Below, piece after piece: positions 1 through 32,000 of a DNA stretch of 32,000 nucleotides (the first letter of the stretch is position 1; each line of letters starts with the position of its first letter). Both the position numbers and the translations under genes were made by a program. This DNA is from Candidatus Saccharimonadota bacterium. Its GTDB lineage: Bacteria > Patescibacteriota > Gracilibacteria > Absconditabacterales > Absconditicoccaceae. The DNA is taken from assembly GCA_000503875.1 (NCBI GenBank), contig CP006913.1, forward strand, positions 420,001 to 452,000, written 5' to 3'. Below the pieces are notes generated by a model, which was given only the letters and a program-made list of their open reading frames with translations, was not told the origin of the DNA and made no database searches.

Positions 1-445
1 AAATTTACCATCTGAAGATAATTTTACTTCTATAGCTTTGATATTTCCAGCACCTGCTTCGAGTACTTTATATACTTTACCACCATCCTTTATAATAGTT
101 CAAGATTCAAGTTGATTCAATGCTGTTAAGTCTTTACTAGAATAATTTTCAGATATATTTTTACCAGGTTGTTTTTTAACTGTAGCCTTAACTTCTTTAG
201 GAGTTAAGATTTTTGGTGTTCTTCCAGGACCAATCATATCTATTGATCTAAAATCTTGCGGTTTAGCGCCAGGAATTTCAATAAATTTCCCATCTGAAGA
301 TATTTTCATTTCTATAGCTTTTATATTTCCAGGACTTGTTTCAATTACTTTAAGTATTTTACCATCATTTTTTATAATGGTTCATGATTCAAGTTGGTTC
401 ATTGCCGTTAAATCTTTACTAGAATATTTTTCAGATATATTTGTT
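1..445 (-). repeat. In-frame tandem repeat with a 282-nt (94-codon) period, in the C-terminal part of the large protein
   Basis: Positions 1-163 align with 283-445 (aaatttaccatctgaagata... versus aaatttcccatctgaagata...). The protein units are ISE(K/N)YSSKDLTA(M/L)NQLES-G-TIIK..GK..KV.E...GNIKAIE.K.SSDGKF, where the G is a TGA codon. More copies may lie beyond the window edge. Confidence 0.85.
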
Positions 446-2937
446 TCCTTTCAACTCTTATCTTTTCCAGAATTTTCTCCTTTTTCTTTTCAATTTTCTT
501 TAATTTTGTTTTTTCCTCCATCAACGAGTTCAATAGTTTTACCTCTTTTTTTGAAAGTTACTTTTTTAGGTAATTTACCGGCACCTTCTGCCATTCTAGA
601 TAATAGACATGCTTGAATAAATTCTTCCCATGTAGGATTCCATGCTTCTCAATTGAAACCACTAAATACAAATTCAAGTCATTGACTCGTTCCAGTTAAC
701 ATTCAACCTTGTACCAAGATTTTTCCAAAATTTTGTAAGATATCTTTACCTACAAGTGCTTTTGGTGCTCATATCCTTAATCCATTGGTATTAATAACAG
801 TATTTGCATTTCATTCTGATAAATTAATTTTTTGACCAAGCTTTGTATTTGCAAGTTTAGAAAAAGCTGTTCAAAGTCATTTAAGAACTCAAACAAATGC
901 AGCAGATTTTGCCATTTCTTTTCGATCTCATACATTCTCAAAAAGAGATCTATCTGGAAGTATAACGTTTGTTGCAATATTAGATCCTTGATAAAAAGCT
1001 ACTCATTCTATACCTGTTTTTAATCACCATTTAGTTAATTTTGCAGTTTTATATGCTGCTTTGGCAAGTTTTCAACCCTTAGATAAATTATTTACTCAAG
1101 AAACTATTCAAGTTCCTCGTTTAGTAGCTTTTATGGCTGTAGATCCATATTTCACAGCAGCTAGAGCAACTCTAGCAGCAATAGCTCAAGCTCCCATAGT
1201 AACAGCAGCTAATGCTATTGTTTGTCATGCTTCTATAGCATAATCTAAATTATTATCTGAAATATCCCATGTACCTACACCCAATATATCTTTCATCATA
1301 GCAAGATCTTTATCTTTTGATAAATCTTGATTTGCATCAAACATAGTCTGGATTTTACCTTCTATCATAAGTTCTTGTAACAAAAGTAGTGTAGATGTAT
1401 TTGTAGATTCTTTTATCATAAAATCAGTAGCTTTTGTTAGATAATCATCCCAATTATAAGCTTTACCTCTAGGGATTATCTTTTCTCAATTATTATTTGC
1501 TTTTTCTTCACTTTCATTTTGTTCATTCCATGATTTTAAAAGAAGCGCTTTGTCTTCTTCATTTGTGGCTTGACTTTCGATACTAGCTTTAAATTGTTTT
1601 TGATTAGAATCTTTATTATTTTTATCTTTGATTTTAATATATTCTTCAATTATTTCTTTTGAAATTGCTTTTGAATCTTTTTCATTAATTCATAAATCTA
1701 TTAAAATTTTAGATATTTTATCTTTTTCTCCTTTGGTAATTATATCAATTGTTTCTGGGTTTTGAAAAATTTTATTTATTTCATCAAAATCACTTCTTTC
1801 GAGAATTCTTTCCATAAGTTTTGATTTAACCGCATCTGAATTTCCTCCTCAATCTCATCCAACAGAATCCAACATTGCATCTCCAAATTTTCTTCTATTT
1901 ATATCCAACATATCTAATTCTAATTCTTTATATTTTGTTGAATCAAAATTGGTAAATAATTTTTTTGTTTTTTCTAAATCATCTTGTCAAAGGACAGTTT
2001 CAATACCTTTTTCTATATAATTCATTTTAGCAAATATTATATCATATACATAATCAAAGCTATTGATCTTTCAACTATTGGCTTTTTCTATAAAATCTGT
2101 AATTTCTTTGTCCATATTAGTTATTTGTGATTTTATAGCAGCTCATTCATCACTTCCTCGTGAAGAATTTAACTTGTTACGAGAATTAGCTACTTTCAGT
2201 GCTCAATCTTTATAGATTTCATAAAATTCCAAGAAAAGATTAAGTTTTTGAAAATGAGGCGGTAATTCTTTATCTCATCATTCTACAGTATATCAATTTT
2301 TCTCTATAAGATGTGGTTTGTATTTACCATCTTTACCTGGTAAATATACAGTACCATCTTCTTTAATATATCATACAACGTCTGTCTTTATTTGAGGCAT
2401 TTCCTCTTTAAATATAGCCAACCACAAAGCGTTATAAGTATGGGGACCAAGAAATCCGTCAATGAAAAGTCTTTTATTCTGATCGCCTGCTTTGTATCAA
2501 TATTTATCCGCATTATAAGGTATTGTAGCATGTTGTCATTGTAAATCATTTAATCCATTTACATAAATTTGAAGAGCCATAACGATATCACTATTATTTC
2601 AACAAATAGTTTGTAGCTCGTTAGCTACTTCTTGCACAAATATATTTGCAGCTTCCACTGTTTTAGATTCTTCTGATTTTTTATCTCGTTTAGCTCTTAT
2701 ATCTACAAGTTTTCCTTTGACATCATTTTCAAGAAAATCCCTTAGTGTTTGATTGTTTTTTTCAGGAAGTGTTTGATTCCCAAGAGTATTAATATTATCT
2801 TTTAAAGGATCTTTTTGGTCTTTCAATGTATCTAATTGTCAACCCAAACTTTTTAATGCAGTTTTTTCTCCATCTTCCCACTTACAATTAAGTTTGTTGT
2901 CAGTTGCTTCTTTAATTTCTTTAGTTAAATCTGTCAT
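1..2937 (-). CDS. Large hypothetical surface/membrane protein (at least 979 aa; 3' end runs off the left edge of the window). It has a peptidoglycan-binding-like motif, a Gly-rich hydrophobic core and C-terminal 94-aa tandem repeats
   Basis: ATG at 2937. The whole stretch to position 1 is a single frame interrupted only by about 35 TGA codons, each checked by hand; there is no TAA or TAG. ORF-track pieces 100..309, 1225..1419 and 2599..2826 all lie in this frame. The motif LFIDGFLGPHTYNALWLAI (about 2414-2471) resembles the PG_binding_1 consensus DGxFGxxTxxAl. A hydrophobic, Gly/Ala-rich segment spans about 590-1230. No family is recognised for the remainder. Confidence 0.75.
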
Positions 2938-2967
2938 TTTAAAAATATAATAAATAAAATATAAATG

Positions 2968-3312
2968 TTACATATTCAAATCTTGAAAAGTCTTTTCTAT
3001 AGCATCAAGATCATCTTTATCCATTTTTTGTGCAACTTCTTTAGTAAGAGCTTGTTTAAATAAAGTTAAATCATTTTTAAATTGTTCCAAAGAATCTCCC
3101 TGTAGACTTTCTAAATTTTTCATAATCATGGTATAATACATATCTAATGTGTCTTCCGCTATATTATTTCCCACTGTGGCAAGTTGAATAGAGATATCTC
3201 AATACATAGGAAGAGCATTTTGTACGATAGTAAGTACTGCTTTTAACTTAACTACCTTCTCTGGTTGTGATAATCATATAAATTTTTGTATCGCTGATTT
3301 GGTATCAAACAT
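2968..3312 (-). CDS. Small (114 aa) hypothetical protein with helix-like composition, immediately upstream of the giant ORF
   Basis: ATG at 3312 and TAA at 2968-2970. Two in-frame TGA join the N-terminus to ORF-track piece 2968..3174. It is on the same strand as the giant ORF, 30 nt upstream of its ATG, so they are probably co-transcribed. Confidence 0.65.
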
Positions 3313-3450
3313 GGATAACGAATACGAATTAAAATCTTTCTTCAATTATATTTCAATTAGCTCCAATTTACAAATATCTCATTGAAAATGCCAAATAACT
3401 ACATAGACAAAAATATAAAAAATGATATAATAATTGAATACAATAAAAAT

Positions 3451-3479
3451 TTGCGTTTTTTTCTATTTTCCTATATAAT
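3451..3479 (+). promoter_or_regulatory. Sigma70-like promoter for the K+ channel gene
   Basis: TTGCGT (3451-3456), a 17-nt spacer, then TATAAT (3474-3479), about 34 nt upstream of the ATG at 3513. Confidence 0.5.
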
Positions 3480-3512
3480 CTAGTATATTACATTTATTTC
3501 AAAAAAATATAT

Positions 3513-4013
3513 ATGCAATTTAAGGACATCGGAAAACTATTTACCAAAAATTTACTTATTACAGAGCTACTTTTAGTTTGACTTATTATCGTATTGGGAG
3601 CTTTTACCTTCCACTTTATAGAATGATGGAGAATTATAGATTCTTTCTATTTTATTATTAGTACGATGAGTACCGTATGATTTTGAGACTTTACACCAAA
3701 AACAGATATAGGTAAATATTTCTTTATGTTTTATGCACTCATAGGTGTACCATTCTTTGTATCTATTGGTGGATTATTTCTAGAAACAAGATTTAAGAAA
3801 ACAATTGAACATTATCTCAAAAGGGTATATAAAGAACTTAGAGAAGCAGAAGAAGAAATTCAAATAGTAGAGGAAACTGTATTAAGAAGATTTAAAAAAC
3901 CCCTCGAAGACGAGAGAAAAGAAAAAGAAATTGAAAATTTAGCAAAAAATAATATAGCTGAAACACCAATAATTGAAAAACAATCTCGATGGAAAAAAAT
4001 ATTTAAAAGATAA
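3513..4013 (+). CDS. Small two-TM potassium channel (KcsA/Ion_trans_2-like pore) with a charged C-terminal tail
   Basis: Table-25 translation gives ...IISTMSTVGFGDFTPKT..., the canonical K+ selectivity filter T-V-G-F-G-D. Both filter glycines are TGA (3678-3680 and 3684-3686). TM segments flank the pore. ORF-track piece 3726..4013 is only the C-terminal part. TAA stop. Confidence 0.9.
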
Positions 4014-4284: not shown

Positions 4285-4755
4285 TTATTTAATCTTATTT
4301 GCTATATAGGCCATAGCTAATGCATCTGCAGCATCGTTATATTCAGGCATTTCTTGTAATCCAAAAATTTTCATAACCATTTTTTGTACGAGATGTTTTT
4401 CAGCTTTACCAGTTCCTGTAATATATTTTTTGACTTCAATGGGAGTAAGTTCTTTGATTTTAATATTATGTTTCAGAAATAGCATCATCAAAGTACCTCT
4501 CAAACCATAGACAAACTCTGCGTTATTTTGATTGAATTTTGTAAAAAATAATTTTTCCATACACATAGTCTGAATTTTATGTTTTTTAATTAATTTTTCA
4601 AAGAAATCATAAATCTGAATTATTCTGGTGAATTGATCTTCTCTTGTAGGGGATTTTTGATCTTGGAGCAAAATCCCTGCATCTACGATAGTATTATCGG
4701 GTTTTATTAGTGCATATCAAAGTTTTCTTACGCCTGGATCAATACCTAAAATCAT
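4285..4755 (-). CDS. ruvC: Crossover junction endodeoxyribonuclease RuvC
   Basis: N-terminus MILGIDPGVRKL-G-YALI (G is TGA) matches the RuvC MIILGIDPG...GYG start. The C-terminal DAADALAMA motif is present. 156 aa, TAA stop. Confidence 0.9.
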
Positions 4756-5522
4756 ATATCTTCAGTAATTCCAGATAAAATTTCATATCAATCTTCCGTT
4801 ACGAGAATTGTATATTCCCATTGGGCCCCTAAATCACCATTTTTACAATAGAGATTCCAGTCATTTTCTTTTTTCATAAAAAAATCTTTTGAACTAACTG
4901 CAGTGATTGGTTCCAAAGCAAGTACCATTCCAGCTTCCAAAAATGTTGTTTTCATAGAAGGATGTGGAATATTGTATACATGTGGATCTTCATGAACTTT
5001 ATTTCCTACACCATGTCATGTGAGCTTTTCTATTACAGAAAATCCTGCATTGGTAATAGAGGAGTGAATATGATGAGAAAAGCCAAATAAAGGGCGATCA
5101 GCAGCGATATATTCAAGTCATGTATCAAGAGATTTTTTGGTGGCAACGACAAGATTATATGCCAATGGATTTGCTAATTCACCACCAACAACTACGCTAA
5201 TGGCAGAGTCAGTGATTCCTCCTTTGTAAGTGATTCCACAATCTATTTTGAGAAGATCTCCATTTTTGAGTATATAATCATCGGGAATACCGTGAACCAC
5301 ACAGTCATTGACTGATAAACAAAGATTTGCAGGGAATCCATGATAATTTTTGAAAGCTCATTTGAGATTGTTCTTTTTGATATAATCTTCTGCTATAAAT
5401 TCTAGTTCAATCAAGGCTACACCAACTTGTGTCGCATGATAAAGTTTGTATAAAAGTTCTGTAAGATATTTTCCAGATTCTCTAATATTGGAAATTTGTT
5501 GTGATGTTTTGATAATGTTCAT
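4746..5522 (-). CDS. map: Type I methionine aminopeptidase
   Basis: Pieces 5118..5300 and the C-terminal part of 5358..5729 share a frame and are joined by TGA. Motifs: FKNYHGFP, VVHGIP, LKIDCG, LT-G-HGVG (G is TGA), ALEP. The TAG stop at 4746-4748 overlaps the ruvC start by 10 nt. Confidence 0.9.
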
Positions 5523-6056: not shown

Positions 6057-7052
6057 ATGAAACACCCTGAATTTCAGTATCTTGATCTCCTTCAGGATAT
6101 TTTGGACAATGGATCAAACAAAAAACTATTTCTTACGCCAGAAGTGTTAGCGGAGTATGCAAAAGATGGTAAAGAGCCACCGTTTATTCGTTCATTATTT
6201 GGACGTCAGATTAGATTTGATCTCAGCAAGGGGTTTCCTTTGTTAACTACAAAAAAAGTCTTTTTTAGAGGAATCTTACACGAACTTATATGGTTTCTTA
6301 AAGGTGATTCCAATGTAAAATATCTTGTAGATAATGACGTACATATTTGGGATGAATGGGCATGGAAAAGATATCATAAATATTGTTTAGAAAAAGATCC
6401 AACAAATGATTTAAGTCAGGAGGATTTTATCGCAAAAATCAAAGCAGAAGACAAAGATAGTGAATTTGTACAAAAACGAGGAGATTTAATTACCATTTAC
6501 GGAAGAATGCGAAGAAGATGGCCAGCTTCAGATGGTCGTGAAATTGATCAATTAGGGTGGGTTATTCAAGGACTCAAAGAAAAACCATTTAGAAAATCTT
6601 ATGTAATATCTGCATGGAATCCAGATTTTATCTATGCTATGGCATCAGAAAAAAACAAGAGTGAAGTTCCTCCATTTTGTCATACAACATTCCAATTTGC
6701 CGTTACTGAAGACAATAAATTAAATCTGGGATTATATCAAAGAAGTGCTGATTCTTTTCTCGGAGTACCGTTTAATATAGCAAGTTATGCTTTATTATTA
6801 CTTATGGTAGCTCAAGTAACAGGATTACAACCAGGAGAATTTGTACATACATTTGGAGATGTTCATATTTATTCTGATCATTTTGATGCAGTACATACAC
6901 AACTTTCAAGAGAACCAAAACCATTTCCAACGATCAAATTAAATCCAGATATCAAAAATATAGATGATTTCAAATTTGAAGATATTGTCTTAGAAAATTA
7001 TGATTCACATCCTGCAATCAAAGCTCCAATAACTAATGTAGGAGGGTTTTAA
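6057..7052 (+). CDS. thyA: Thymidylate synthase (ThyA), long form with an insertion
   Basis: MKHPEFQYLDLLQDIL..., RSLFGRQIRFDL, ELIWFLKGDSN, ISAWNP, PPFCHTTFQF, YQRSADSFLGVPFNIASYALL and HTFGDVHIY are all classical ThyA blocks. I prefer the ATG at 6057 to the TTG at 6030 used by the ORF track. There is no in-frame TGA. Confidence 0.93.
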   Translation: MKHPEFQYLDLLQDILDNGSNKKLFLTPEVLAEYAKDGKEPPFIRSLFGRQIRFDLSKGFPLLTTKKVFFRGILHELIWFLKGDSNVKYLVDNDVHIWDEWAWKRYHKYCLEKDPTNDLSQEDFIAKIKAEDKDSEFVQKRGDLITIYGRMRRRWPASDGREIDQLGWVIQGLKEKPFRKSYVISAWNPDFIYAMASEKNKSEVPPFCHTTFQFAVTEDNKLNLGLYQRSADSFLGVPFNIASYALLLLMVAQVTGLQPGEFVHTFGDVHIYSDHFDAVHTQLSREPKPFPTIKLNPDIKNIDDFKFEDIVLENYDSHPAIKAPITNVGGF

Positions 7053-7070: not shown

Positions 7071-7748
7071 ATGCATACATTTGAAATTGAAATCAAAGTT
7101 CTTCTTGGAAGCCAAGAAAAAGCATCAGAACTTGTTAAAAAATTATACGAAAACGATTCAGAAACAAATATAATAGGTGAAAATAGTCAGCTTAATCATT
7201 ATTTTCTTGTTCAAGGAGATTTTGAAAAATTATATCAAGCAGTACAACAATATATAGCTCCAGAACATCATGATAAATTGCATCAAGTTATCATCGAAGG
7301 AAAAGGTCATTCTATTCGTACGAGAGAAGTTGATGGAAAAGTATTATTTATTGTCAAAGCATCAGTTGATGATACAACAAGTGCAAATGGGACAGCAAGA
7401 ATAGAATTTGAAGAAAAAATCAATCTTAGTTTACAAGAAGCAGATCAAATTCTTCTTGATAACGGATTTCCCTATCAATCAAAATGGTCAAGACAAAGAA
7501 AAGAATATAAATACAAAGACTACAATGTTTGTATTGATAAAAATGCAGGATATGGATATGTTGCAGAATTTGAAAAAATGATTACCGATAAAGATCAAGC
7601 AGAAAGTACAAAAGAAGCTATAAGAAAAGAACTTGCTTTATTGGGAATAGAGGAGTTGGATCAAGGTAGATTAGAAAGAATGTTTACTCATTATAATTCC
7701 CATCGACCAGAATATTATGGAACAGAAAAAACATTTATTATAGAATAA
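7071..7748 (+). CDS. CYTH-domain protein (CyaB/ThTPase-like triphosphate tunnel metalloenzyme)
   Basis: The N-terminal FEIEIKVLL carries the CYTH ExExK signature. Size (225 aa) and alternating charged beta-strand-like segments fit the family. It starts 19 nt after thyA, has no in-frame TGA and ends in TAA. Confidence 0.6.
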   Translation: MHTFEIEIKVLLGSQEKASELVKKLYENDSETNIIGENSQLNHYFLVQGDFEKLYQAVQQYIAPEHHDKLHQVIIEGKGHSIRTREVDGKVLFIVKASVDDTTSANGTARIEFEEKINLSLQEADQILLDNGFPYQSKWSRQRKEYKYKDYNVCIDKNAGYGYVAEFEKMITDKDQAESTKEAIRKELALLGIEELDQGRLERMFTHYNSHRPEYYGTEKTFIIE

Positions 7749-8305: not shown

Positions 8306-9316
8306 CTAGTTGAAAATATATTTAAATTTTTTAATAATCATTTTGTCTGTCAATAAAATTCAAATTTCTCTATTATTATCCATACTATTGGCAGAAAAAT
8401 TTATACTTCAAAGATAAAGAATCTGATCATCTATCAACATCATTTTTGCATGAATATAGGGCTTTTTGATAAGTTTTACGATAGTTTTTCACCATTGTTG
8501 TTGGAGGGCTTTGTTCTTATCGGTATCTGGGAGCTGGACATGGATTTTTTCTGTTCAGAGAGTCGATATCTTCTCTCCCAGAAGTCAAAGGAGGCGAGGG
8601 TCTTCGATGTATTGATTTTGAATAAGAATTGATGATTTCGCCGACTCTATCAAATGCTCTAAAACTGACCTACAATTAATAGGACACACCAAAAGATTGG
8701 GATGAATATCGCTATAACGAATACTCTCACCTTTCCAATCTTTATCAAAAATAGTCGCTAAACTTTGATATACACCTGTATGCTGACTGTAGAAAAAATA
8801 TTCACGATTAGTAAAAAAAGAAGAATGCGTCAGATTTGCTGTTTGAATCAAAAATCCACTATCAATCAAAGCAAATTTACTGTGCACATACGTTGTTTTC
8901 ATTTGTTTATCGTTTTTTATTTCAAAATTATCATATCAACTAAATAGATTCTGAATTTCTTTGAAGGTATTTTTAAATTGTTGGTATTTTTTATCTTCCA
9001 TAACAAGCTTGATATCTATATTATTTTCTAGTAATTCTTTTAAAAGCGTTTTGAATCTTTTTTCGGTAAATTCATACGTTTGGATTGAAAGGCTGTTTTT
9101 TGCTTGTTGAAATATTCAAAGAGTTTGATCCATGCTTCATGGAGAAGAATAGATTATGCCAGAAATTATTTCAATTCAAGAAAGAGTATCAACAACAGAA
9201 AATAGTTCTGGTTTGCTTTTTTGTTCAAAAGAAATCACTCCAAAAATATTCCCTAAAAAAATTAGTGCAATAATTAATCCAATCCATAAAAAAACTATAC
9301 TTTGCTGTTTTTTCAT
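8306..9316 (-). CDS. Membrane-anchored phospholipase D superfamily protein with two HKD motifs
   Basis: Pieces 9176..9382 and 8585..8902 and the downstream sequence are one frame joined by TGA. The first HKD, HSKFALIDSGFLIQTANLT, has a degenerate GSxN tail. The second, HAKMMLIDDQILYL-G-SINFS, is canonical and its G is TGA. N-terminal TM anchor MKKQQSIVFLWIGLIIALIFLG. I prefer the ATG at 9316 to the TTG at 9382. TAG stop at 8306-8308. Confidence 0.8.
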
Positions 9317-9958: not shown

Positions 9959-10630
9959 TTAATCTGAAGATAATCCAATTACAAACTCTCCTTTGATGGG
10001 GAGTTTTTTTGTCGCGATAAGTTCTTGTATTTCCGATACTGTTCAGGTTACTTGTTGTTCAAACATTTTACTAAGTTCTCTACAAATACTTACTTTACCG
10101 GTAAATCACAAGGCGCTGAGCTCTGTAAAAAGTTTTTCCACTCTATGTACAGATTCATAAAAAAAGGTAGGTATCTCAGATTGTAAGGCATTTTTCAAAG
10201 CCGTTTGTCTTCCTTTTTTTTGGGGAAGGAATCAAATATACACAAAAGATGAAGTATCGAAACCAGCGCCTACGACTGCAGGTACTAAGGCATTCGCTCA
10301 AGGAAGAATAGAATAGGGGAGCTTTTGCTCATTACATAATTGAATGAGGCTCTTTCCTGGATCAGAGAGTCAAGGAGTGCCTGCTTCAGAGACTATTCAG
10401 ACATCATGTTCTTTGAGGATATTGAGATAATGATTCATTTTGCCTTGTTCAGTGAAACTAGTTAGCGAAGATAACTGTTTGTCAGAAAAATTGATTTCAT
10501 ACATCTGCAACAATTTCATCGTTGTCCTTGTATCTTCGCACAGCAAATATTTTAATTCTTTGAGCATACGCAAAGCTCTCAGAGTTATATCTTCTTTATT
10601 TCCAATAGGTGTCGGGATAAAATAGAGCAT
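9959..10630 (-). CDS. rsmI: 16S rRNA (cytidine1402-2'-O)-methyltransferase RsmI
   Basis: MLYFIPTPIGNKEDITLRALRMLKELKYLLCEDTR matches the RsmI N-terminus. Downstream SEAGTP-G-LSDPG (G is TGA) is the conserved tetrapyrrole-methylase-fold motif. 223 aa, TAA at 9959-9961. Confidence 0.9.
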
Positions 10631-11471: not shown

Positions 11472-12251
11472 TTATTCTAAAATAAGTGTTCATTTTTTCT
11501 TGAGTATCAACTTTTCATCCAGCATTCCCTTGATAATATCTGCAACATCTTTGTTAGGAAATTCTTCCTGCACACGAGAAATCAAAAGGGGTTTATCATC
11601 TTTGGTCAACTGCTTCAAAATCCATCCTCTCACTTGTCTATCAGAACCTTCAAATTTTGATTGTTTGGAAAGGGGTTTGATTTTGGTCTTTCTTGCAGTG
11701 AGTTCTAATGCTCCATAATCCATCAATGCATTATGCCAATCACGAGATTTTCCTGACGGTATAATTTTTTCTGCGAAGAGTTCGAGTTCTTGAAGTGAAA
11801 TAGTTTCAGGAAGTTTGTATAAGAAGATAAGTACTCTTCTGATATTGGTATCAATCACTGGCACTTCTTGGTTCCAAGCAAAAGCCAGAATAGCAGCTGA
11901 AGTATAGGGTCAAATTCAAGGCAATCATAAAAGCTGGTTTCTTTTGTTTGGTAATTTTCCATCATATTGTTCAACGACTGTTTGTGCACAGGCTTGCAAT
12001 CTCAAAGCTCTACTATTAAATCCAAGTCACGACCGATGTTTCAAAAGGTCGGTTTTTGTTGCCTTTGCTAAACTTACATAATCAGGAAAATCTTTCATCC
12101 ATTGATGAAAATAGGGGATGACTCTCTCCACCTGAGTTTGTTGTAACATAACTTCAGAAATATGTATTGCATAAGGATCTTTTGTCTGTCTCCAAGGAAG
12201 TATTCTTCCTTGTTTTTTATATCGATCCAAAATATTTTGAGGGATATTCAT
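11472..12251 (-). CDS. mutY: MutY-like HhH-GPD adenine DNA glycosylase; no Fe-S cysteines and no NUDIX-like C-terminal domain
   Basis: GRILPWRQTKDPYAIHISEVMLQQTQVERVIPYF is very MutY-like. S-G-LGFNSRA and LL-G-LP-G-I-G-PYTSAAI (TGA at 11925-27, 11916-18, 11910-12) form the HhH-GPD hairpin. VIDTNIRRVL carries the catalytic Asp. The standard-code stop at 11490-92 is TGA; the real stop is TAA at 11472-74. The only Cys in the protein is in LQACAQ. Confidence 0.8.
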
Positions 12252-20981: not shown

Positions 20982-21611
20982 TTATGCGTGTAAAGGAGTA
21001 AACATATGTTGTGTAGTAATAAATTTCTCAAACAAAGCTATTTTATTGTCGTAATATTCCATATCTTTATCAATGGTTTGGATATTTTTATGGTGTTTAT
21101 AAAAATAAGAAATCATACTTTTGGCTTTTTTGTAATTTTGTTCCAAAATATAGATTTCTATAAGATTATAGATAACTTCTGCATCTTTATTATTGATAGA
21201 AAAAGAATCTTTGAGAAGATTTACTCACTTTTCTCTGTTACCATACCAATATTCACAAAGACCATAACATCTAATAATTTCATGATTTTCAGCTTTAGTA
21301 AGTTCCAAAGCCTTTCTTAGATATTTTTTTGCATCAATCCAGTTGTTTTTTTCCATTTCTAGAACTCATTTAATATACAATCCCAATGGATCTTCGTGAT
21401 TTTTCTTTGCATTAAGAAAATCAATAGCTTTTGATGCTTTTCCTATTTCTCATTGTCTGTATTGAATATCCGTTACCTGCAAAAGAGCATCTTCATTACT
21501 AGGATCCTTTACGAGGATAGTATTGATCTTTTTCATAGCTTCATCAAATTTATTGAGTTCTTTAAGTTGTTCTATTTCATCAATCAATTGTTCTGGAATA
21601 TACGTGTTCAT
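20982..21611 (-). CDS. Tetratricopeptide-repeat (TPR) protein
   Basis: ATG at 21611 and TAA at 20982-84 (209 aa, 3 TGA). It shows repeated A/Y/L-spaced helical pairs (e.g. KFDEAMKKINTILVKDPSNEDALL, NWIDAKKYLRKALELT, YKKAKSMISYFYKH). It ends 2 nt before the ftsX ATG. Confidence 0.7.
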
Positions 21612-21734: not shown

Positions 21735-22793
21735 CTATAATGTTTTTTGTCCTAAAACGACAGGAAAAGATAATGTTTGGTTATTTCTTATTATAGTAAA
21801 AACAACAGTTTCACCTGGTTTATAGGTATATAAATAATATAAGAGAGGATTGATTAAAGAAATTTTACGTTTATCTAGTGAAATAATGATATCTCCAACT
21901 AATAATTGTCATTGAACAGGAGAACCAGCAAAAATAGTATCTATTTTGGCTCAAGTGGAAGTATCGGTATAAGATATTCCAAGATATGGTCTCAATAGAA
22001 GGTTATTTTGCTGAAGAATTTCAAGTGTTGTTGTAATAAATTTATAATTCAACGGTATTGCAAAACCAATATTGTTGCCTCCACGAGAAATAGCAGTTAC
22101 TATACCCAATACATCCCCAGAAAGAGAAATCAATGGTCATCAACTATTTCAAGGATTTAGCGCTGCATCTGTTTGATAAAATCCTGCATAATAAGAATTT
22201 GTTGAAGAATCTATAGTTAATTTTCTTCATTTTCCACTAATAATTCAAAAAGAAACTGTATTTGGATACTCAGATAATGGATTCCCAATAGCAAAAACGA
22301 ACTGTCAAACATTAACAGGTTCATCAAGATCAATAAATTTAGCTTCTGATAGTAGAGGGGTTTCTATTTCAATAAAGATAATTGCTATATCGATCATATC
22401 ATCTTTTCGTATTTTTTTTACAGGGAAACTTTTTCCATCATCAGTAATAACTGTATATTTTAAGTTTAAATTATCGACTACATGATTGTTAGTAATAATA
22501 TAACCTTTTTTTGAAATTATAATACCAGTTCATTTTTTTAGTATACTTTGTTTTTCAATAAGTGTATCTTTATCAAAAGACTCTTCTTGATAATAAGCAG
22601 CTGTATCTTCAGCAACAACCTGTACGACAATATCAGTAGTAGTACTGGCTCAAGCGATTATTTGTTGTTCCAGAGATTTTGCACTACCAGGAGCCATCTG
22701 AGAATAGTTCTTATTTCAAAAGAAATAAGAAGAAAAAAAGAGAATAACTAAGATATTTACTCCAAGCATTCGTAAAAATCCCTTGTTGTGCAT
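21735..22793 (-). CDS. htrA: HtrA/DegP-family trypsin-like serine protease with a C-terminal PDZ-like region
   Basis: The N-terminal TM is followed by GYIITNNHVV (His), DIAII (Asp) and TDAALNP-G-NS-G-G-PL (catalytic Ser box GNSGGP). All three box glycines are TGA (22149-51, 22140-42, 22137-39). 352 aa, TAG at 21735-37. Confidence 0.9.
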
Positions 22794-22894: not shown

Positions 22895-25456
<2,562 letters not shown>

Positions 25457-25573
25457 AAACGCATACGAAATATATAAAAAAAAGACTAAGTCCAAAGTCA
25501 CGTCAATCCTTTATATAAAAATTAAGACCTAATTCAAGCATAAGAAATAGTTTTTCCTTGACAAAAAAACAAT

Positions 25574-25603
25574 AAAAAAACCCACCAGAAATAATCTGAC
25601 GGG
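25574..25603 (-). terminator. Rho-independent terminator downstream of purA
   Basis: On the minus strand cccgtcaga pairs with tctggtggg (9 bp including two G-U pairs, 25581-25603), followed by T7. Confidence 0.65.
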
Positions 25604-25627
25604 TTTAGAATATTTTCTTGAAGATAT

Positions 25628-26929
25628 CTATCTATATATGATATCTTTGCGGTCAGGACCGGTAGATACTATAGTTATAGGCAGATCCAAGTATTTTTCA
25701 ACCATCTTGATGAAAGCTAAAAAATTTTCATCAAATTTTCCATCTTCATCAACCATTTTTTTCCAACCTTCTATAGTTTTATAGATTGGAATAGCTTTCT
25801 CGTCCGGAAAATTATGGTTGTTCTCATATGCCACACAAACTTTCAATTTTGGTATTCCATCCAAAATATCAGCTTTTGTCATAATCAACTCAGTTACTCC
25901 GTTGATCATGCATGAATATTTGAGCAATACTAAATCTAACCAACCACAACGACGCGGACGTCCAGTGGTAGCACCAAATTCTTTACCAATTTTTTGAATT
26001 ATAACACCCCATTCTTTTTCAGTTTTACCTAGAAATCTTTTGTTTTTGCTAAGTAATTCTGTTGGGAATGGGCCTTCTCCAACCCTGGTTGTATAAGCTT
26101 TGAAAAGTCCAAATACTTTACCAAGATGTTTTGGAGACATACCAGTACCGGTAAAGAAACCTCCGATGGAAGTATTAGATGCGGTCACACCTGGATAAGT
26201 TCCATGATCTATATCAAGGAATGTTCCTTGAGCACCTTCTCCCAAAAACCTTTTACCATTATTGATGGCTTCATTCAAATAAATAGCTGTATCAGTAATT
26301 CTGAATTTTTTTAGGAATTCAATTGCATCAAGCCATTGATTGAACAAAGCTTTGGTATCTACGTCAAAAATCATTTCAGGGAATTTGCTAGATATAATCG
26401 AAAGATGTTCATAATATAGCTCTTTTGCTTTCTCTTGGAAATCTGGATCATTGATAGAACCGGTTCTCAGGCCAACACGCAATATTTTATCTGCGGTTGT
26501 AGGACCAATACCTTTCAAAGTAGTTCCAACCTTATTTTTTCCCTTTTTTACTTCCTGGTATTTATCCAGTATTTTGTGGCTTGGAAGAATAAGATGGGCT
26601 TTATTTGAAATAACTATTTTTTTCAATAATTCTTCCATAGTCAATAAATCCGGGAAATTATTAACCAAATTGAGAATTTCTTGCCTAAATATAACAGGAT
26701 CTATGAGAACCCCATTTGCAATGATACTTTCAGAATTTTTTTTGAAGATATTTGAAGGTATTGTGTGTAAGACCGTTTTGACAGCATCAAATTCTATGCT
26801 ATGGCCAGCATTTGGCCCACCTTGAAAACGAATACCACCATTGTAGTTTTCTTTATTAGAGATTGCATCAACTGCTTTCCCTTTACCTTCATCCCCCCAT
26901 TGGAGGCCTAATAATACGTCTGCTTTCAT
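25628..26929 (-). CDS. purA: Adenylosuccinate synthetase
   Basis: Uninterrupted 433-aa ORF. GLQWGDEGKGK P-loop, GGPNAGH, TTLKGIGP, GAQGTFLDIDHGTYP, VT(A)SN and GATTGRPRRCGW are all canonical PurA blocks. There is no in-frame TGA; the stop is TAG. Confidence 0.96.
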   Translation of the reverse strand: MKADVLLGLQWGDEGKGKAVDAISNKENYNGGIRFQGGPNAGHSIEFDAVKTVLHTIPSNIFKKNSESIIANGVLIDPVIFRQEILNLVNNFPDLLTMEELLKKIVISNKAHLILPSHKILDKYQEVKKGKNKVGTTLKGIGPTTADKILRVGLRTGSINDPDFQEKAKELYYEHLSIISSKFPEMIFDVDTKALFNQWLDAIEFLKKFRITDTAIYLNEAINNGKRFLGEGAQGTFLDIDHGTYPGVTASNTSIGGFFTGTGMSPKHLGKVFGLFKAYTTRVGEGPFPTELLSKNKRFLGKTEKEWGVIIQKIGKEFGATTGRPRRCGWLDLVLLKYSCMINGVTELIMTKADILDGIPKLKVCVAYENNHNFPDEKAIPIYKTIEGWKKMVDEDGKFDENFLAFIKMVEKYLDLPITIVSTGPDRKDIIYR

Positions 26930-27147
26930 AATTTTAAATTTATGTTAGTGTTTTGGTTAGTTTTATTTTAAATAAGTCGATATTAAAAATATAATAAATA
27001 ACCGACTTCGATGATTAACATAAAGATATAAAATAAAAAGTCAATAAAAGATATTATAATAAACTATTTTTGATAAAAAATCCAGAAATTCTCTTGAAAA
27101 ACAATAAAAAAAAGAAATACTATATATAGCTTTACTTTCTAACCCCT

Positions 27148-27483: not shown

Positions 27484-29199
27484 GTGTCTGAACAAATATT
27501 CTTAGCATTATCAATCGTTATTTGAGCAGTACTCATTACGCTTGGTATTATGAAAGTACTAAAACAACCTATGATTATCTGATATATCCTTGCAGGAACA
27601 TTAATCAGTATATTTTTACCAAATTTATTGCATGGAAATACAAGTTTCGAATCATTTGGAAATTTAGGAATAAGCTTTCTATTGTTTATGGTAGGTATGG
27701 AGCTAAATCCTAGCATTATTAAAGATCTTGGAAAAACAGCATTAATTTGATGAAGTATACAGGTAATTGTTACATCATTCGTATGACGGGGAATAGCTAT
27801 GTTGCTGGGAATGGATCCTATGACATCACTATACATAGGAGTCTGATTTTCTTTTAGTAGTACAATCGTTGTTCTAAAATTACTCGGAGATAAAGATGAA
27901 ATGGAATCAACATTCGGAAGATTAAGTATTGGTATTCTAATCGTTCAAGATATAATTGTTATGCTTATGTTGGTTGGATTGGCTACATTCAAAAATATTT
28001 GAGATACAAGTGGAATAGCAGTTATTTGATGATTAGTACTCAAAATGATTGGATTAGGTGGTGGTTTATATCTTATAGGAAAATATCTTATACCAAAAAT
28101 AACAGAAAAAATTGCAGAATCACAAGAATATCTCTTTCTTTTCGCTATATGACGATGTTTTATATTATGAAGCGTATTTCATTGGTTTTGATTTGGTATA
28201 GAAATTGGTACATTGATTGCAGGTATAACACTAGCTAACTCTTCTTATAGATTTGAAATAACGAGTAGAATAAAGTCATTGAGAGATTTTTTTATAGTAA
28301 TATTCTTCGTATTATTATGATCTCACGTGGATTTTGGATGAATTGGTATTTATCTTCCAAAAGTTATCATACTTTCTCTCTTTGTATTGATAGGAAAACC
28401 TATTATTGTAAGTATTATTTTAGGATTGATGTGACATACAAAAAAGAATAATTTTTTCACATGATTATCACTTGGACAAATTAGTGAATTTTCTTTTTTA
28501 CTTATCACCATGGGAATAGCATCATGAACGATTAAAGATCCAAATATATTATGAATAATTACCTTAGTGGGATTGGTTTCTATTGCTTGATCAAGCTATT
28601 TTATGGTGTATAATGAAAAATTATATCATATACTAAAACCACTTATTAAGTTCTTACCAGGTCTTTGGAATAAAGAATACAAAAAAATAAACAAAGAAGA
28701 TTATAATATTATGTTATTTGGATATGGAAGATTTGGAAGCAATCTCTATCAATTTTTGACAAAAAAAGAAGATAAAATTCTTATTGTAGATGAACATCCA
28801 ACAATTATAAAACAACTTCAAAAAGGAAATATTCCATGTATTTATGGAGATGTAGGAGATAGTGAATTTCTCCAAGAACTCAATATAAAAGAGACAAAAA
28901 TGATTATAAGTACTATTAAGAAATTTGATGAAAATATGGTATTATTAAAAACAATGAAACAACACAAAAAAAATCTGATTATCATCTTGGTATCAAATCA
29001 TGTTGAAGAAGCTATTAAATTGTACGAACAAGGTGCTGATTATGTTATTTTACCTCATTATATAGGGGTCGATCATACTTCTTTAATGCTTGAAGAATAC
29101 GGTTTCGATATAGAAAAATTTATTAATAACAAAGAGTATCAAATTCATAAGTTACAAGAAAAACAATGAATTTCTATTATAGAAACATTAAGTAAATAA
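27484..29199 (+). CDS. CPA2-family monovalent cation:proton antiporter (Kef-type) with a C-terminal TrkA-N/RCK domain
   Basis: GTG at 27484 (an in-frame TAA lies at 27451-53 upstream). There are about 380 aa of TM domain with more than 20 TGA-Gly, e.g. QPMII-G-YILAGTLI, FLLFMVGMELN, GI-G-ISFSSTIVVLKLL and LIVQDI. ORF-track piece 28603..29169 follows in frame and carries the Rossmann motif IMLFGYGRFG. The standard-code stop at 29167-69 is TGA; the real stop is TAA at 29197-99. 571 aa. Confidence 0.88.
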
Positions 29200-29813: not shown

Positions 29814-30530
29814 ATGCTTGAAATCAAAAATTTATCAGTAAAAATAGAAGAAAAAATACTTTTAAACGATATATCTTTGAGTTTTGAATTATGAAAAAAT
29901 TATTGTATTTTAGGAAAAAACGGCTCTGGAAAATCTTCATTAGCAATGACGATTATGGGACATCCAAAATACATAATAGAATCAGGATTTATTACTGTAG
30001 AAGGGAAATCTATTAAAGAAATGGAGCCTAATGAAAGAGCTAAACTGTGAATTTTTCTTGCTTTTCAACATATTCCAGAAATTGCAGGATTGAAATTATT
30101 TGAGTTTCTTAGAACAATTTATAATGCAAATCAATGACAAGAATATTCATTTTTACAATTTAAAAAAATAATAGAGCCACTATTTTTAGAACTAAATTTA
30201 GAAAAAGATTTTTTGCGAAGAGATCTTAACGTGGGTTTTAGTGGTGGAGAAAGAAGAAAATTAGAGGTTCTTCAAATAAAATTACTCCAACCTAAATATA
30301 TAATTCTGGATGAAATTGATAGTGGACTTGATGTTGATGCATTCAAAACCGTTGCAAAATTGGTTGCTGAAGAGAACAAAGAATGAAATACATTTATTGT
30401 AATCACCCATATTTTTACAATTTTGGACTATATTTCCGTAGATAAAGTGTTTATTTTGGAAAACGGAAAAATAAGCAAAGAGTGAGATACATCTTTGATC
30501 ACAAAAATCAAAAAAGAATGATTTAATTAA
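29814..30530 (+). CDS. sufC: Fe-S cluster assembly ATPase SufC
   Basis: Table-25 translation: Walker A GKNGSGKSS, GHPKYIIESGFITVEGKSI, ERAKL-G-IFLAFQHIPEIAG, NVGFSGGERRKLEVLQ, ILDEIDSGLDVDA. This is the SufC-specific pattern. 238 aa with 7 TGA, TAA at 30528-30. The standard-code track misses it entirely. Confidence 0.88.
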
Positions 30531-31269
30531 TATTGTTTTTGATTTTTATTTCGGGTTTTTCTGGGTGTTCTACTTTTGCAATAAATCAATTCTGTCGTTC
30601 TTCAAGAGTGTTATCTTGTTTAAATTTTTCTTTAAAAAAATTTAATAACTGAGGAGAAAAATATTTTAAATCAATAATTCATTTTTTATGTAAATCTGGA
30701 AATATATCATCAAATCAAATTATTTTTCATGGAATAATTGCTGTGTTTACAATAGATTCATTGATATCACCATAATCACTAACAAATTTTCAAACACCAA
30801 TATTAACGGTATTTCTACCTTTTTGATCCACATAGTAAACTATATTGTTATGTGTTCATTCTAAACCAAAATGAAGTTTATATATTAATGGATCAGGTGT
30901 TTTTAATTCATTAACAACTAAATTAACATCGGAAAATCATGCTTCTTTCATATAATGCAATATCAAGAAAGAATATTCCAAACAAGTATTCATAAAAAAA
31001 ACTTCTTTTTCTGTTAACAATTGTCTTGTTGATAATTTTCGCATAGTATCAGGATCGTATTTTGGAGTTTTTTTTAAATTTGAATAAACACGATGAATTA
31101 TATCTGATATTACATAAAATACATCTTGATGTGTCTCGCATCAATCCAGTTTTTGGGTCTTTCCAAGAATACTATATATTTGTTGATCAGAAAGCAATTC
31201 TTTGTATCAATGAGATGCTATTTCTGATAATTGTTGTTTGGGAACTAAAATATTATTTAGATTTTCCAT
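30523..31269 (-). CDS. Hypothetical protein (248 aa)
   Basis: ATG at 31269 and one frame through about 9 TGA to TAA at 30523-25, overlapping the sufC 3' end by 8 nt. No family recognised. The antisense track ORF 31062..31271 is a shadow. Confidence 0.55.
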
Positions 31270-31344
31270 AAATAAAAAACCAAATAAAATAGAAAAAATC
31301 AATATCCGATAATAACGATTTTACAAAAAAAGTCAATTAAATGC

Positions 31345-31374
31345 AAAAAAGAAAAAACCCACTCATTTGAGCGG
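31345..31374 (-). terminator. Rho-independent terminator downstream of 31395..31910
   Basis: On the minus strand cccgctc pairs with gagtggg (31357-31374, one G-U pair) around a 4-nt loop, followed by a long T-run. Confidence 0.7.
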
Positions 31375-31394
31375 GTCATAATTTAACTCTAGCT

Positions 31395-31910
31395 CTACAA
31401 GGTAGAGTTTTTATAAATAGCAATAGAGGTAGTTGTAACTTTTAGTTTGTACTTTTCTTTTTCAAAAAGAGATAACAAATTTTCCTCTAAGGCCACAGAA
31501 TTGTTGATTAAATGAATAGTAGGCTTTATAAAAATTTTTCCTCTTTCCATTTTTGCAGCGGAAAGAAAATTGTTTTCATAAGAGCCATCTGAATCAGTAT
31601 TGTGAAATACTTTTTCAATAATTTTAGCTATTTCACTTAATGGCGGAAGTTTGATAACGATCAAAAAGCAGGTGATGTCAATTGCAGTTCCCTCAGGAAA
31701 ATGCTGTTTCAAAAGCTTTCTAAGTAGCATATTATCAAATTTCAAACAAGGTTTTGGTCTGAGATATACTTTTTCATCCGATAAAGAACAATCAGAAAAG
31801 AAATTGTTATGAAAACTTTTGTTAAAGTTCGTCTCGCTAAATGCTTTTTTAATCAGAACTACTATCTCTTCTAGAGTATAGCGGTAGAGAATAGTGTTGG
31901 AGTCTTCCAT
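31395..31910 (-). CDS. Hypothetical protein (171 aa) built from two homologous halves
   Basis: Uninterrupted ATG..TAG ORF. The halves align: EEIVVLIKKAFSETNFNKSFHNNFFSDCSLSDEKVYLRPKPCL with SEIAKIIEKVFHNTDSDGSYENNFLSAAKMERGKIFIKPTIHL. Confidence 0.65.
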   Translation of the reverse strand: MEDSNTILYRYTLEEIVVLIKKAFSETNFNKSFHNNFFSDCSLSDEKVYLRPKPCLKFDNMLLRKLLKQHFPEGTAIDITCFLIVIKLPPLSEIAKIIEKVFHNTDSDGSYENNFLSAAKMERGKIFIKPTIHLINNSVALEENLLSLFEKEKYKLKVTTTSIAIYKNSTL

Positions 31911-32000
31911 TTTTAGATTTTTTTTTGTTAGCGGGTTGTTAATATATATTTTAATACTAAAGTCAATAGATATAATTTATAAAAAAATCCCTTTATATTT

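Follow-up and report, generated by a model that had tools for sequence, protein, structure and literature searches.

The window, a stretch of 32,000 nucleotides, was very probably derived from the Absconditabacteria genome RAAC1_SR1_1, in which UGA encodes glycine, only UAA and UAG act as stops, CGA and probably CGG encode tryptophan, and purA forms an exception; we hold this reading as a whole with high confidence. Kantor et al. (2013, mBio, PMC3812714), who described RAAC1_SR1_1, reported UGA as glycine and a tRNA-UCA gene, so this finding was already known for the genome in 2013, and the same assignment was confirmed by proteomics in the related BD1-5 lineage (PMC4032931).

Source of the DNA and gene content

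The table-25 translation of GyrA was the same, residue for residue, as P148_SR1C00001G0431, the GenBank protein of candidate division SR1 bacterium RAAC1_SR1_1, and the DNA of ENA ERZ936476 and NCBI DPJE01000003.1 was 100% identical to the window. The contigs with this identity come from one Rifle aquifer sample. On the strength of these identities, we place the window in the chromosome of RAAC1_SR1_1, an uncultured member of the Absconditabacteria (candidate division SR1) that GTDB lists as species UBA5124 sp000503875. A sequence-only reading of the window had proposed a CPR bacterium of the SR1/Gracilibacteria type, which agrees with this exact match. The GC content was low, at 29.5%.

Table 1. 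Genes of the window, with the basis of each assignment and counts of recoded codons
Feature	Coordinates	Strand	Basis and codons
Hypothetical protein, 1199 aa (ENA call)	1..2937	-	N-terminal 979 codons in window; runs off left end
K+ channel (Ion_trans_2)	3513..4013	+	Pfam PF07885
RuvC	4285..4755	-	ENA gene call, PF02075; 10-nt overlap with methionine aminopeptidase start
Methionine aminopeptidase (MetAP)	4746..5522	-	Pfam PF00557; E. coli map alignment
Thymidylate synthase (ThyA)	6057..7052	+	Pfam PF00303; TGA 0
CYTH-domain protein	7071..7748	+	Pfam PF01928; TGA 0/13 Gly codons
PLD-like protein	8306..9316	-	Pfam PF13091; TGA 9
RsmI-like TP_methylase	9959..10630	-	Pfam PF00590; E. coli rsmI, 39% identity
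HhH-GPD (MutY/Nth-like) glycosylase	11472..12251	-	Pfam PF00730
MutS	12559..15162	-	Five MutS Pfam domains; E. coli mutS alignment
secE	17064-17321	+	Pfam PF00584
nusG	17353-17937	+	Pfam PF02357
rplK	18764-19216	+	Pfam; TGA 4; longest table-11 piece 34 aa
rplA	19291-19986	+	Pfam; TGA 1
FtsX-like protein	20047-20979	-	Pfam; TGA 8; orthologue in L133
TPR protein	20982-21611	-	Pfam; TGA 3; orthologue in L133
HtrA/DegP protease	21735..22793	-	Pfam Trypsin_2 and PDZ_2; TGA 11
GyrA/ParC-type topoisomerase subunit A	22895..25456	-	TGA 13, CGA 2
purA (adenylosuccinate synthetase)	25628..26929	-	Pfam PF00709
CPA2-type cation/H+ antiporter with TrkA_N domain	27550..29199	+	Pfam; TGA 19
SufC-like ABC ATPase	29814..30530	+	Pfam; E. 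coli sufC, 38% identity; TGA 6
Hypothetical protein	30523..31269	-	TGA 9/14 Gly codons; longest table-11 piece 35 aa

RuvC was missing from the gene listing of the sequence-only reading. ENA places the start of the PLD-like protein 36 nt further upstream, at 9352, and calls the antiporter at 571 aa, so that its start probably lies upstream of 27550, near 27484.

UGA as a sense codon

All 13 codons cited by the sequence-only reading were TGA on the strand given, and they lay in conserved motifs (g denotes TGA). Both glycines of the K+ channel selectivity filter, TVgFgD (3678-80, 3684-86), were TGA, and the TVGFGD and TIGYGN of K2P channels in the PDB align to its TVxFxD. All three glycines of the HtrA catalytic box, NPgNSggP, were likewise TGA (22149-51, 22140-42, 22137-39), as were three in LLgLPgIgPYT of the glycosylase (11925-27, 11916-18, 11910-12), one in RNTPgV of NusG (17653-55) and one in GQGNFgSIDGD of GyrA. 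MutS carried 12 TGA codons, two in Walker A, TgPNMgGKST (13276-78, 13264-66); MetAP carried five, including that of LTgHGVG and a last one that lay one residue ahead of the C-terminus; the RsmI-like protein carried six, one in GTPgLSDPG; and RuvC carried one, in ILGIDPGVRKLgYA.

Stop-to-stop reading frames of at least 100 aa covered 53% of the window under the three standard stops, compared with a coding density of 91% when genes were called with TAA and TAG only. In the 20 Pfam-matched genes (6361 codons), TGA occurred in frame 112 times and TAA and TAG never, while the other two frames held 341 and 307 TAA and TAG. Single domains spanned several TGA codons (DNA_topoisoIV, GyrA residues 35-493; MutS_V, residues 626-812). 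The hypothetical gene at 1..2937, whose frame was open under TAA/TAG stops only, contained 36 TGA and four CGA codons; over the whole gene, 47 of the 111 glycine codons were TGA, and the share in the window was approximately 29% (180/611). Called genes ending within the window terminated at TAA (26) or TAG (6; 33 genes tabulated), and the predicted C-terminal extensions beyond the last TGA were recovered for the glycosylase (+6 aa), the antiporter (+10 aa) and the 5655 gene (+3 aa). The genes described as invisible under table 11, namely sufC, 16347-17051 and 30523-31269, indeed lacked any in-frame table-11 piece of at least 60 aa (longest 57, 49 and 35 aa); the same was true of the TPR protein, whose longest piece was 54 aa, and of L11, at 34 aa. 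The warning that table-11 annotation would be wrong was realized in the MAG GCA_003543185.1, which has identical DNA and in which GyrA was called in nine pieces and MutS in eight.

UGA as glycine

The amino acid was inferred blind by aligning 13 genes with their E. coli K-12 orthologues and summing the BLOSUM62 scores for each codon. The 77 TGA columns held G 38 times, A 11 times, other residues 28 times and W never; glycine scored best (175), followed by alanine (19), and the controls TGG, AGA and CGT were recovered as W, R and R. Approximately half of the TGA columns were thus not glycine in E. coli, as expected for ordinary glycine codons at this degree of divergence, because GGT columns were 64% G. 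Among 147 diverse GyrA homologues (representatives of 50%-identity clusters), glycine occupied six TGA columns at 69-98%: aa74 (137/145), aa78 (126/144), aa113 (142/145), aa307 (101/147), aa403 (140/147) and aa698 (130/135). Opposite the TGA codons of the window, sister species L133 had TGA 54 times, GGN 15 times and another codon twice; L133 had TGA opposite a window GGN 26 times, and in this codon-level comparison TGA never stood opposite TGG. The SufC TGA two residues ahead of the stop was GGN in the relative L134, and the thymidylate synthases of relatives carried TGA at invariant glycine columns. UGA and GGN have exchanged freely during evolution. The claim that UGA means glycine, neither tryptophan nor stop, and that its columns are enriched for glycine was therefore upheld by E. 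coli orthologues, GyrA homologues and sister species alike.

The organism translates UGA as glycine and terminates at UAA and UAG only. In the proposed mechanism, UGA would be read by an extra tRNA-Gly with anticodon UCA and identity elements G1:C72, C2:G71, G3:C70 and U73, and release factor 2 would be absent alongside it; these steps were drawn from the literature on the RAAC1 genome and its relatives. Campbell and colleagues are said to have noted the absence of release factor 2 in 2013. No tRNA genes were present in the window or approximately 14 kb of added flanks.

CGA and probably CGG as tryptophan

The 25 CGA and two CGG codons of the window genes behaved as tryptophan and never as arginine. 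Comparison with homologues indicates that CGA, and probably CGG, has left the arginine box and is read as tryptophan, making the working code table 25 plus CGR = Trp; table-25 translations, including those in GenBank, thus place arginine at conserved tryptophan positions. CGA was infrequent (25 of 9346 codons), the main arginine codon being AGA. Eleven CGA/CGG columns held W four times and R never in E. coli, compared with 60% R at AGA and 46% R at CGT columns. The two CGA codons of thymidylate synthase (6477-79, 6510-12) fell on columns that were tryptophan in 114/120 and 117/120 homologues. In the comparison of the window organism with L134, CGA replaced TGG or the reverse eight times, and outside purA no CGA stood opposite an arginine codon. 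At the GyrA CGA of aa148, homologues had F (108) and W (16), and R was outside the five commonest residues. Both CGG codons pointed to tryptophan, with n = 2 only: the glycosylase CGG (12033-35), like its CGA (12222-24), was opposite W in E. coli MutY, and the antiporter CGG (27787-89) was TGG in the sister species. The antiporter also had a CGA at 28153-55, and the hypothetical gene at 30523..31269 had an L133 orthologue of 83% identity in which TGA and CGA were conserved.

The sequence-only reading had stated that conserved tryptophans remain TGG. This held for KWYV of NusG (17416-18), but several others were CGA or CGG, including the NusG CGA at 17629-31 on the conserved tryptophan of ..W..VRNTPGV, which is W in E. 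coli NusG. The case against UGA as tryptophan is not weakened by this.

The purA exception

The purA gene used TGA at none of its 41 glycine codons (P = 6e-7) and had no CGA or CGG, so its translation is identical in tables 11, 4 and 25. Over six species, purA had no TGA among 248 glycine codons, and in four relatives it carried CGA/CGG at invariant arginine columns while neighbouring genes used CGA as tryptophan. The gene is under purifying selection, yet is read correctly by the standard code only. By these alignments, a uniform code does not fit purA or its orthologues, and CGA decoding may be ambiguous, or non-uniform across genes or lineages. A standard-code donor resembling Bacteroidota is its probable source, and the gene has been kept UGA-free through speciation. 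The sequence-only reading recorded neither this avoidance of recoded codons nor CGA/CGG as tryptophan.

Alternative readings of the code

Under the standard code, the TGA codons would be true stops in pseudogenes, sequencing errors, selenocysteine sites or programmed readthrough sites. The only support for this was the table 11 default, under which GCA_003543185.1 was annotated, and we considered it the least credible reading: the essential genes gyrA, mutS, nusG, rplK, secE and htrA would all be broken, and by TGA only, without TAA, TAG or a frameshift; identical TGA codons were conserved in independently assembled relatives; and purifying selection extended across them (omega 0.04-0.12). Selenocysteine would be expected opposite cysteine rather than glycine, and a scan against Rfam gave no match to any family, SECIS elements included, at the gathering threshold. 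The standard code with TGA stops had thus already been refuted. Table 4, the code of Mycoplasma and certain insect endosymbionts in which UGA means tryptophan, was also highly improbable. It is the table that gene finders select on contigs of this kind, it gives ORF lengths that are no worse, many relatives in the databases have been translated with W at TGA positions, and Kantor et al. initially used it for the bin (PMC3812714). However, the column counts had already refuted it: W occupied 0/77 TGA columns in E. coli as opposed to 8/23 TGG columns, at most one W occurred among 135-147 homologues at the GyrA TGA columns, and TGA was exchanged with GGN but never with TGG. Under table 4, the thymidylate synthases of relatives showed W only at 18 invariant glycine columns, at up to 12 of the 18.

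Plain NCBI table 25, with UGA as glycine its sole change and CGA/CGG still arginine, was unlikely, albeit less so than either of these codes. GenBank uses it, giving R at both GyrA CGA codons; the purA orthologues with CGA/CGG on invariant arginine columns favour it, and several window CGA codons fell on unconserved columns where nothing is decidable. Against it, arginine occupied 0/11 CGA/CGG columns, where approximately 55% would be expected, and the thymidylate synthase columns and the swaps between CGA and TGG tell the same way. In relative L145, GyrA columns of at least 90% arginine used AGA and CGT only, and the Codetta calls for GCA_000503875.1 that bear on this point give CGA as tryptophan (PMC8629427). 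We therefore retain table 25 with CGA, and probably CGG, as tryptophan.

Comparison with known systems

The window shared low GC, UGA as glycine and UAA and UAG as sole stops with the SR1/Gracilibacteria code, table 25 (Campbell et al. 2013 and Rinke et al. 2013, as cited elsewhere; Kantor et al. 2013, PMC3812714). The organism is the same, RAAC1_SR1_1, and there was no difference at UGA; table 25, however, lacks CGA/CGG as tryptophan, as which these codons appeared to behave in the window. The Mycoplasma/Spiroplasma code (table 4) is similar in that a host-dependent bacterium with a small, AT-rich genome uses UGA as a sense codon, but there UGA is tryptophan, decoded by tRNA-Trp(UCA), whereas the decoder in RAAC1 is an additional tRNA-Gly(UCA) according to Kantor et al. 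(PMC3812714).

The closest parallel for CGA is the Codetta survey of Shulgina and Eddy (2021, eLife, PMC8629427), whose entries for GCA_000503875.1 give UGA as glycine and CGA as tryptophan, with one tRNA(UCG), one tRNA(CCG) and no tRNA(ACG). Its reassignment of CGA/CGG to tryptophan in Absconditabacteria matches the placement of window CGA codons on conserved tryptophan rather than arginine columns, and in both CGA is rare (25.7 per 10,000 in the Codetta table for this assembly) and AGA is the chief codon for arginine. CGG was called '?' there, whereas the two window CGG codons suggest tryptophan (n = 2), and the purA exception seen in the window organism and its relatives is not mentioned in the passages of that paper examined here. 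A counterpart to purA is provided by code-11-compatible phages of Gracilibacteria and Absconditabacteria, which avoid in-frame TGA (mBio 2023, PMC10746230), an avoidance that the authors ascribed to the advantage of use in standard-code cells. Both are TGA-free DNA tied to a host with UGA as glycine and readable in both codes. Unlike these phage genomes, purA is one gene of the chromosome, flanked by core genes in conserved synteny, and in some species it has kept CGA/CGG as arginine, which would be mistranslated under the host's own code.

Gene calling without a UGA stop

Gene calling that terminated only at TAA or TAG gave a non-overlapping gene set with a coding density of 91% in the window (G+C 29.5%), whereas stop-to-stop ORFs of 100 aa or longer took up 53% of it when the three standard stops were used. 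Twenty genes were matched to Pfam families (K+ channel, MetAP, ThyA, CYTH, PLD, RsmI-like methylase, HhH-GPD glycosylase, DUF1294, MutS, SecE, NusG, L11, L1, FtsX, TPR, HtrA, GyrA, PurA, CPA2 antiporter and SufC), and their 6361 codons included 112 in-frame TGA and no in-frame TAA or TAG; the other two frames of these genes contained 341 and 307 TAA plus TAG. Several of the TGA codons were crossed by single Pfam domain alignments. The terminators of the 33 tabulated genes were TAA (26) or TAG (6), and complete genes ended in one or the other. These results bore out the sequence-only reading, which had proposed a comparison of coding density between table 25 and tables 11 and 4 and had stated that its coding sequences end in TAA or TAG. 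The codons it had cited were all TGA on the strand it gave, position 17416-18 was TGG as it had stated, and the C-terminal extensions of 6, 10 and 3 residues were reproduced. In the three genes that it had called invisible to the standard-code track, every table-11 piece was shorter than 60 aa.

A gene for RuvC, absent from the list of that reading, overlapped the MetAP start by 10 nt and is easily lost by a longest-ORF picker. The C-terminal part of a 1199-aa protein carried a tandem pair of ~55-residue segments, NISE.YSSKDLTA.NQLESgTIIK..GK..KV.E....NIKAIE.K.SSDGKF, with TGA (lower-case g) at the equal position in both copies. No window gene had a recognisable Shine-Dalgarno sequence, and an Rfam search of the window returned no matches.

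Positions of the features discussed
Feature	Locus	Positions	Strand	Remark
RuvC	window	4285-4755	-	ENA gene call
ThyA	window	6057-7052	+	
ThyA, CGA codons	window	6477-79, 6510-12		
Glycosylase, CGG codon	window	12033-35		
Glycosylase, CGA codon	window	12222-24		
NusG, CGA codon	window	17629-31		
Other CGA/CGG examples	window	25013-15, 27787-89		
1199-aa protein, C-terminal part	window	~1-420	-	tandem segments
purA-gyrA spacer	window	25457-25627		
purA	window	25628-26929	-	
purA orthologue	L133	10001-11302		sister species
purA orthologue	L134	10001-11263		relative
purA orthologue	L145	6402-7670		relative
purA orthologue	L146	4172-5443		relative
purA orthologue	L147	3601-4881		relative
16-nt direct repeat	window	25565-25580, 27097-27112		brackets purA
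tRNA(UCA)	L072	596-666		NZ_QQRU01000007.1
tRNA(UCA)	L139	8966-9041		OGZM01000847.1
tRNA(UCA)	L137	452-525		BNJS01003896.1

Source organism and existing annotation

The table-25 translation of gyrA matched GenBank P148_SR1C00001G0431 of SR1 bacterium RAAC1_SR1_1 exactly over 853 residues, and the window DNA was 100% identical to SRR944699 (Rifle sediment) contigs in ENA and Logan and to the MAG GCA_003543185.1 (NCBI). At least 120 GyrA relatives were found at 72% identity or above, and among the 120 best homologues every named one was Absconditabacteria, SR1, Gracilibacteria or "uncultured bacterium (gcode 4)", in agreement with the SR1/Gracilibacteria-type source that had been proposed from the sequence. 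Shulgina and Eddy (PMC8629427) list the assembly under the GTDB species UBA5124 sp000503875.

The reading of UGA as glycine is correct for this very genome and was already known. Kantor et al. (2013) reported that RAAC1 reads UGA as glycine, that table 11 yields 2,288 short ORFs, and that it has a tRNA-UCA gene almost the same as its counterparts in other SR1 genomes (PMC3812714); in the related BD1-5 lineage, UGA as glycine was confirmed by proteomics (PMC4032931). Codetta, the codon-meaning inference of Shulgina and Eddy (2021), predicted UGA = Gly, CGA = Trp and CGG = "?" for this assembly, and the same authors treated RF2 presence as a counter-indicator in non-recoded "Gracilibacteria" (PMC8629427). 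The gene calls of GCA_003543185.1 (DPJE01000003.1) appear to have been made with table 11: GyrA was split into nine pieces and MutS into eight, and the SufC, antiporter and HtrA calls were stubs. The warning that table-11 annotation would be wrong was thus realised in a deposited record.

Meaning of UGA

TGA, and later also CGA and CGG, were masked as X and the aligned positions were compared with standard-code sequences. Against the E. coli K-12 orthologues of 13 window genes, the 77 TGA columns held G in 38, A in 11 and W in none, with the remainder scattered; as a reference, G stood in 71% of GGA columns and 64% of GGT columns. In a blind inference, each of the 20 amino acids was scored by BLOSUM62 summed over the aligned residues. 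This assigned TGA to G (score 175; runner-up 19), the controls TGG to W and AGA and CGT to R, and the other well-sampled codons, CGA and CGG apart, to their standard meanings. A panel of 147 GyrA homologues, representatives of 50%-identity clusters, showed 69-98% Gly at six TGA columns (137/145, 126/144, 142/145, 101/147, 140/147 and 130/135). The K+ channel filter TVxFxD matched TVGFGD/TIGYGN of solved K2P channels (PDB).

Codon interchange with the sister species L133 (~92% amino-acid identity, shared synteny, ~3,400 codons aligned) gave the same answer. Window TGA codons stood opposite TGA in 54 cases, GGN in 15 and other codons in 2, L133 TGA stood opposite window GGN in 26 instances, and TGA/TGG interchange was not seen in the aligned codons. 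A TGA two residues ahead of the SufC stop was GGN in the relative L134, which indicated that near-terminal TGA was also read through. Together, the homologue columns, the codon interchange and the SufC tail excluded pseudogenes, sequencing errors and selenocysteine as accounts of the TGA codons. They also excluded table 4 (UGA = Trp), under which Trp would be expected at columns where E. coli had none and the GyrA panel at most one apiece. UGA stood in frame in genes terminated by UAA or UAG, its columns pointed to Gly, and UGG was still Trp and distinct from UGA, as table 25 describes. The claim that UGA encodes glycine, and with it the expectation that TGA columns would be Gly-enriched in homologues, was upheld by the E. 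coli columns, the blind inference, the GyrA panel, the channel filter and the GGN interchange alike.

ThyA contained no TGA in the window. Under table-4 translation of its relatives, W was confined to the 18 Gly columns invariant in standard-code Patescibacteria, and up to 12 of the 18 were TGA, so that a lasting absence of TGA from this gene was rejected. The window ThyA was 76-82% identical to that of standard-code Patescibacteria (Moranbacteria, Parcubacteria, Uhrbacteria and Falkowbacteria), far nearer to non-recoded lineages than GyrA is, which suggests an unusually conserved gene or one moving among CPR.

Meaning of CGA and CGG

The called genes used CGA 25 times and CGG twice, against 66 TGG and 171 AGA. 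Of the 11 CGA/CGG columns alignable to E. coli, four were W and none R, whereas R stood in 60% of AGA and 46% of CGT reference columns; in the blind inference, CGA scored as W, and so did CGG on two codons. The two CGA columns of ThyA were W in 114/120 and 117/120 homologues, and the few "R" entries came from the closest relatives, which also had "R" where the window has TGG. The NusG CGA and the glycosylase CGA and CGG lay opposite W in E. coli. At the GyrA CGA (aa148), an F/W column, R was outside the five commonest residues. Between species, CGA or CGG was swapped with TGG and, purA apart, never with an Arg codon. In the window genes, these codons thus lay on conserved Trp and off conserved Arg, as in the Codetta prediction; the exception was purA of four relatives.

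In these alignments, CGA and CGG behaved as Trp, not Arg, which agrees with the Codetta prediction and hence is not new. Table 25 leaves the other 61 codons standard, and this did not hold for CGA, nor for CGG on two codons. Table 25 therefore misreads these 27 codons, and the GenBank table-25 protein has R at them. The sequence-only statement that conserved tryptophans remain TGG was correct in that TGG is still W, but several conserved Trp columns (ThyA, NusG and glycosylase) were CGA or CGG. The interpretation of UGA as Gly is therefore supported in an amended form, table 25 plus CGA(/CGG) = Trp.

Decoding tRNAs and release factor

According to the literature, UGA would be decoded by a tRNA-Gly(UCA) with glycine identity elements, and CGA/CGG by tRNA(UCG) and tRNA(CCG) with Trp features, for which G73 and a lack of A20 would be expected, with no tRNA(ACG). 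The supplement to PMC8629427 counts one tRNA(UCG), one tRNA(CCG) and zero tRNA(ACG) genes in this assembly. ARAGORN found no tRNA genes in the window, in the retrieved loci L001-L003 or in L141 and L143, two flank loci that extend the sequence covered by ~14 kb. Campbell et al. in 2013 reportedly found RF2 to be absent. A degenerate tRNA pattern run over genome contigs listed at least 120 matches, almost all in unrelated genomes that were mostly high in GC; among those listed, the relevant Gly-type tRNA(UCA) matches came from two MAGs, one of Gracilibacteria (L053) and one of Patescibacteria (L100). When five of the unrelated loci were re-checked with ARAGORN, tRNA(UCA) was found in the Streptococcus locus L072 alone. 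A stricter pattern run over metagenome contigs gave six matches, none traceable to SR1, and EF-Tu of three of these contigs aligned poorly (47-51% identity).

The L072 gene, from the standard-code Streptococcus sp. LQJ-218, was 71 nt long, had the anticodon UCA and an acceptor stem of glycine type (GCG...CGC-U73), and was placed in a normal cluster between tRNA-Phe and tRNA-Ile; it is possibly a UGA suppressor derived from tRNA-Gly(UCC). Two further contigs carried near-identical Gly-type tRNA(UCA) genes. That of L139 (31% GC) was one of 11 clustered tRNA genes, and the ORFs of this contig need no TGA readthrough; that of L137 occupied the Gly position of a Thr-Tyr-Gly-Thr cluster.

Standard-code readability of purA

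None of the 41 Gly codons of purA was TGA, compared with 29.5% window-wide (P = 6e-7), and the gene also contained no CGA or CGG, so that its translation was identical in all the codes. Five database proteins were at least 62% identical to this PurA, followed by Bacteroidota PurA at ~50%; all five came from independent assemblies (L133, L134, L145, L146 and L147) with shared SufC-(antiporter)-purA-(gyrA) synteny. Across the six species, TGA was used at 0 of 248 purA Gly codons, whereas in neighbouring genes it made up ~5-80% of Gly codons, with outliers such as MurA (2/32) and L147 SufC (1/17). The purA of L134, L145, L146 and L147 carried CGA or CGG where standard-code homologues have Arg, and 10 of these 12 codons, including those of the GRPRR motif, lay on columns that were Arg in 115/115 homologues. 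At the purA Arg columns of the six species, CGT, CGC, CGA, CGG, AGA and AGG interchanged freely, the standard six-fold pattern, whereas other genes on the same contigs used CGA as Trp and kept it off conserved Arg. The lack of TGA and the placement of CGA and CGG on invariant Arg indicated that purA reads correctly in the standard code only.

Recent horizontal transfer was rejected as the cause of the TGA avoidance, as the orthologues were TGA-free at 62-92% identity, in conserved synteny and with divergence like that of their neighbours. Conserved purA Gly codons had changed at 14 of 41 positions in the L133 comparison and at 24 of 36 in the L134 comparison, without TGA in any, whereas the neighbours' Gly codon changes involved TGA in 41/74 and 32/41 (Fisher P = 6e-5 and 1e-10); purA Gly codons thus turned over at a normal rate, and recency does not account for the absence of TGA. 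General codon atypicality was likewise rejected, as the non-Gly usage of purA was like that of the TGA-using MutS, RsmI and PLD genes. A decaying pseudogene was incompatible with the purifying selection on purA (omega 0.12) and with the 118-123 of 134 invariant columns kept. Flanking direct repeats were considered as integration scars, and the sole candidate was an exact, A-rich 16-nt repeat, AAAAACAATAAAAAAA, which is probably due to chance. The purA-gyrA spacer, conserved in the six species, contained a clean intrinsic terminator hairpin 3' of purA and, ahead of gyrA, a TTGTCAAG ... TATTATGCTTGAAT motif.

Implications

The UGA = Gly result is of practical worth rather than novelty. The same DNA is in GenBank twice, as RAAC1 by table 25 and as GCA_003543185.1, apparently by table 11, with its genes shredded, and table 25 itself still sets Arg on conserved Trp in three proteins (ThyA, NusG and the glycosylase), with further genes probably affected. 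Absconditabacteria genes should be translated with UGA = Gly together with CGA(/CGG) = Trp before they enter homology searches, structure predictions or expression constructs.

The exception of purA could prove of greater consequence, as a naturally occurring test for uniform decoding of the reassigned codons, and it merits genome-wide follow-up. Selection appears to act on the standard-code reading of purA. Possible accounts are expression in a standard-code setting, replenishment from a standard-code pool that has not been sampled, decoding that is ambiguous or varies with context, or something else. Tentatively, and with considerable doubt, we suggest that selection might keep purA readable in the standard code within UGA/CGR-recoded genomes, the gene being translated, or renewed again and again, where the standard code applies (for example in the cell of a host or of prey, or in a mobile pool shared across codes), or that CGA and UGA decoding might depend on the gene or condition. 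The gene could also show whether these epibiotic, host-dependent bacteria keep some genes compatible with the code of their partner, as proposed for some of their phages. Those TGA-avoiding, code-11-compatible phages (PMC10746230) are the nearest precedent for purA.
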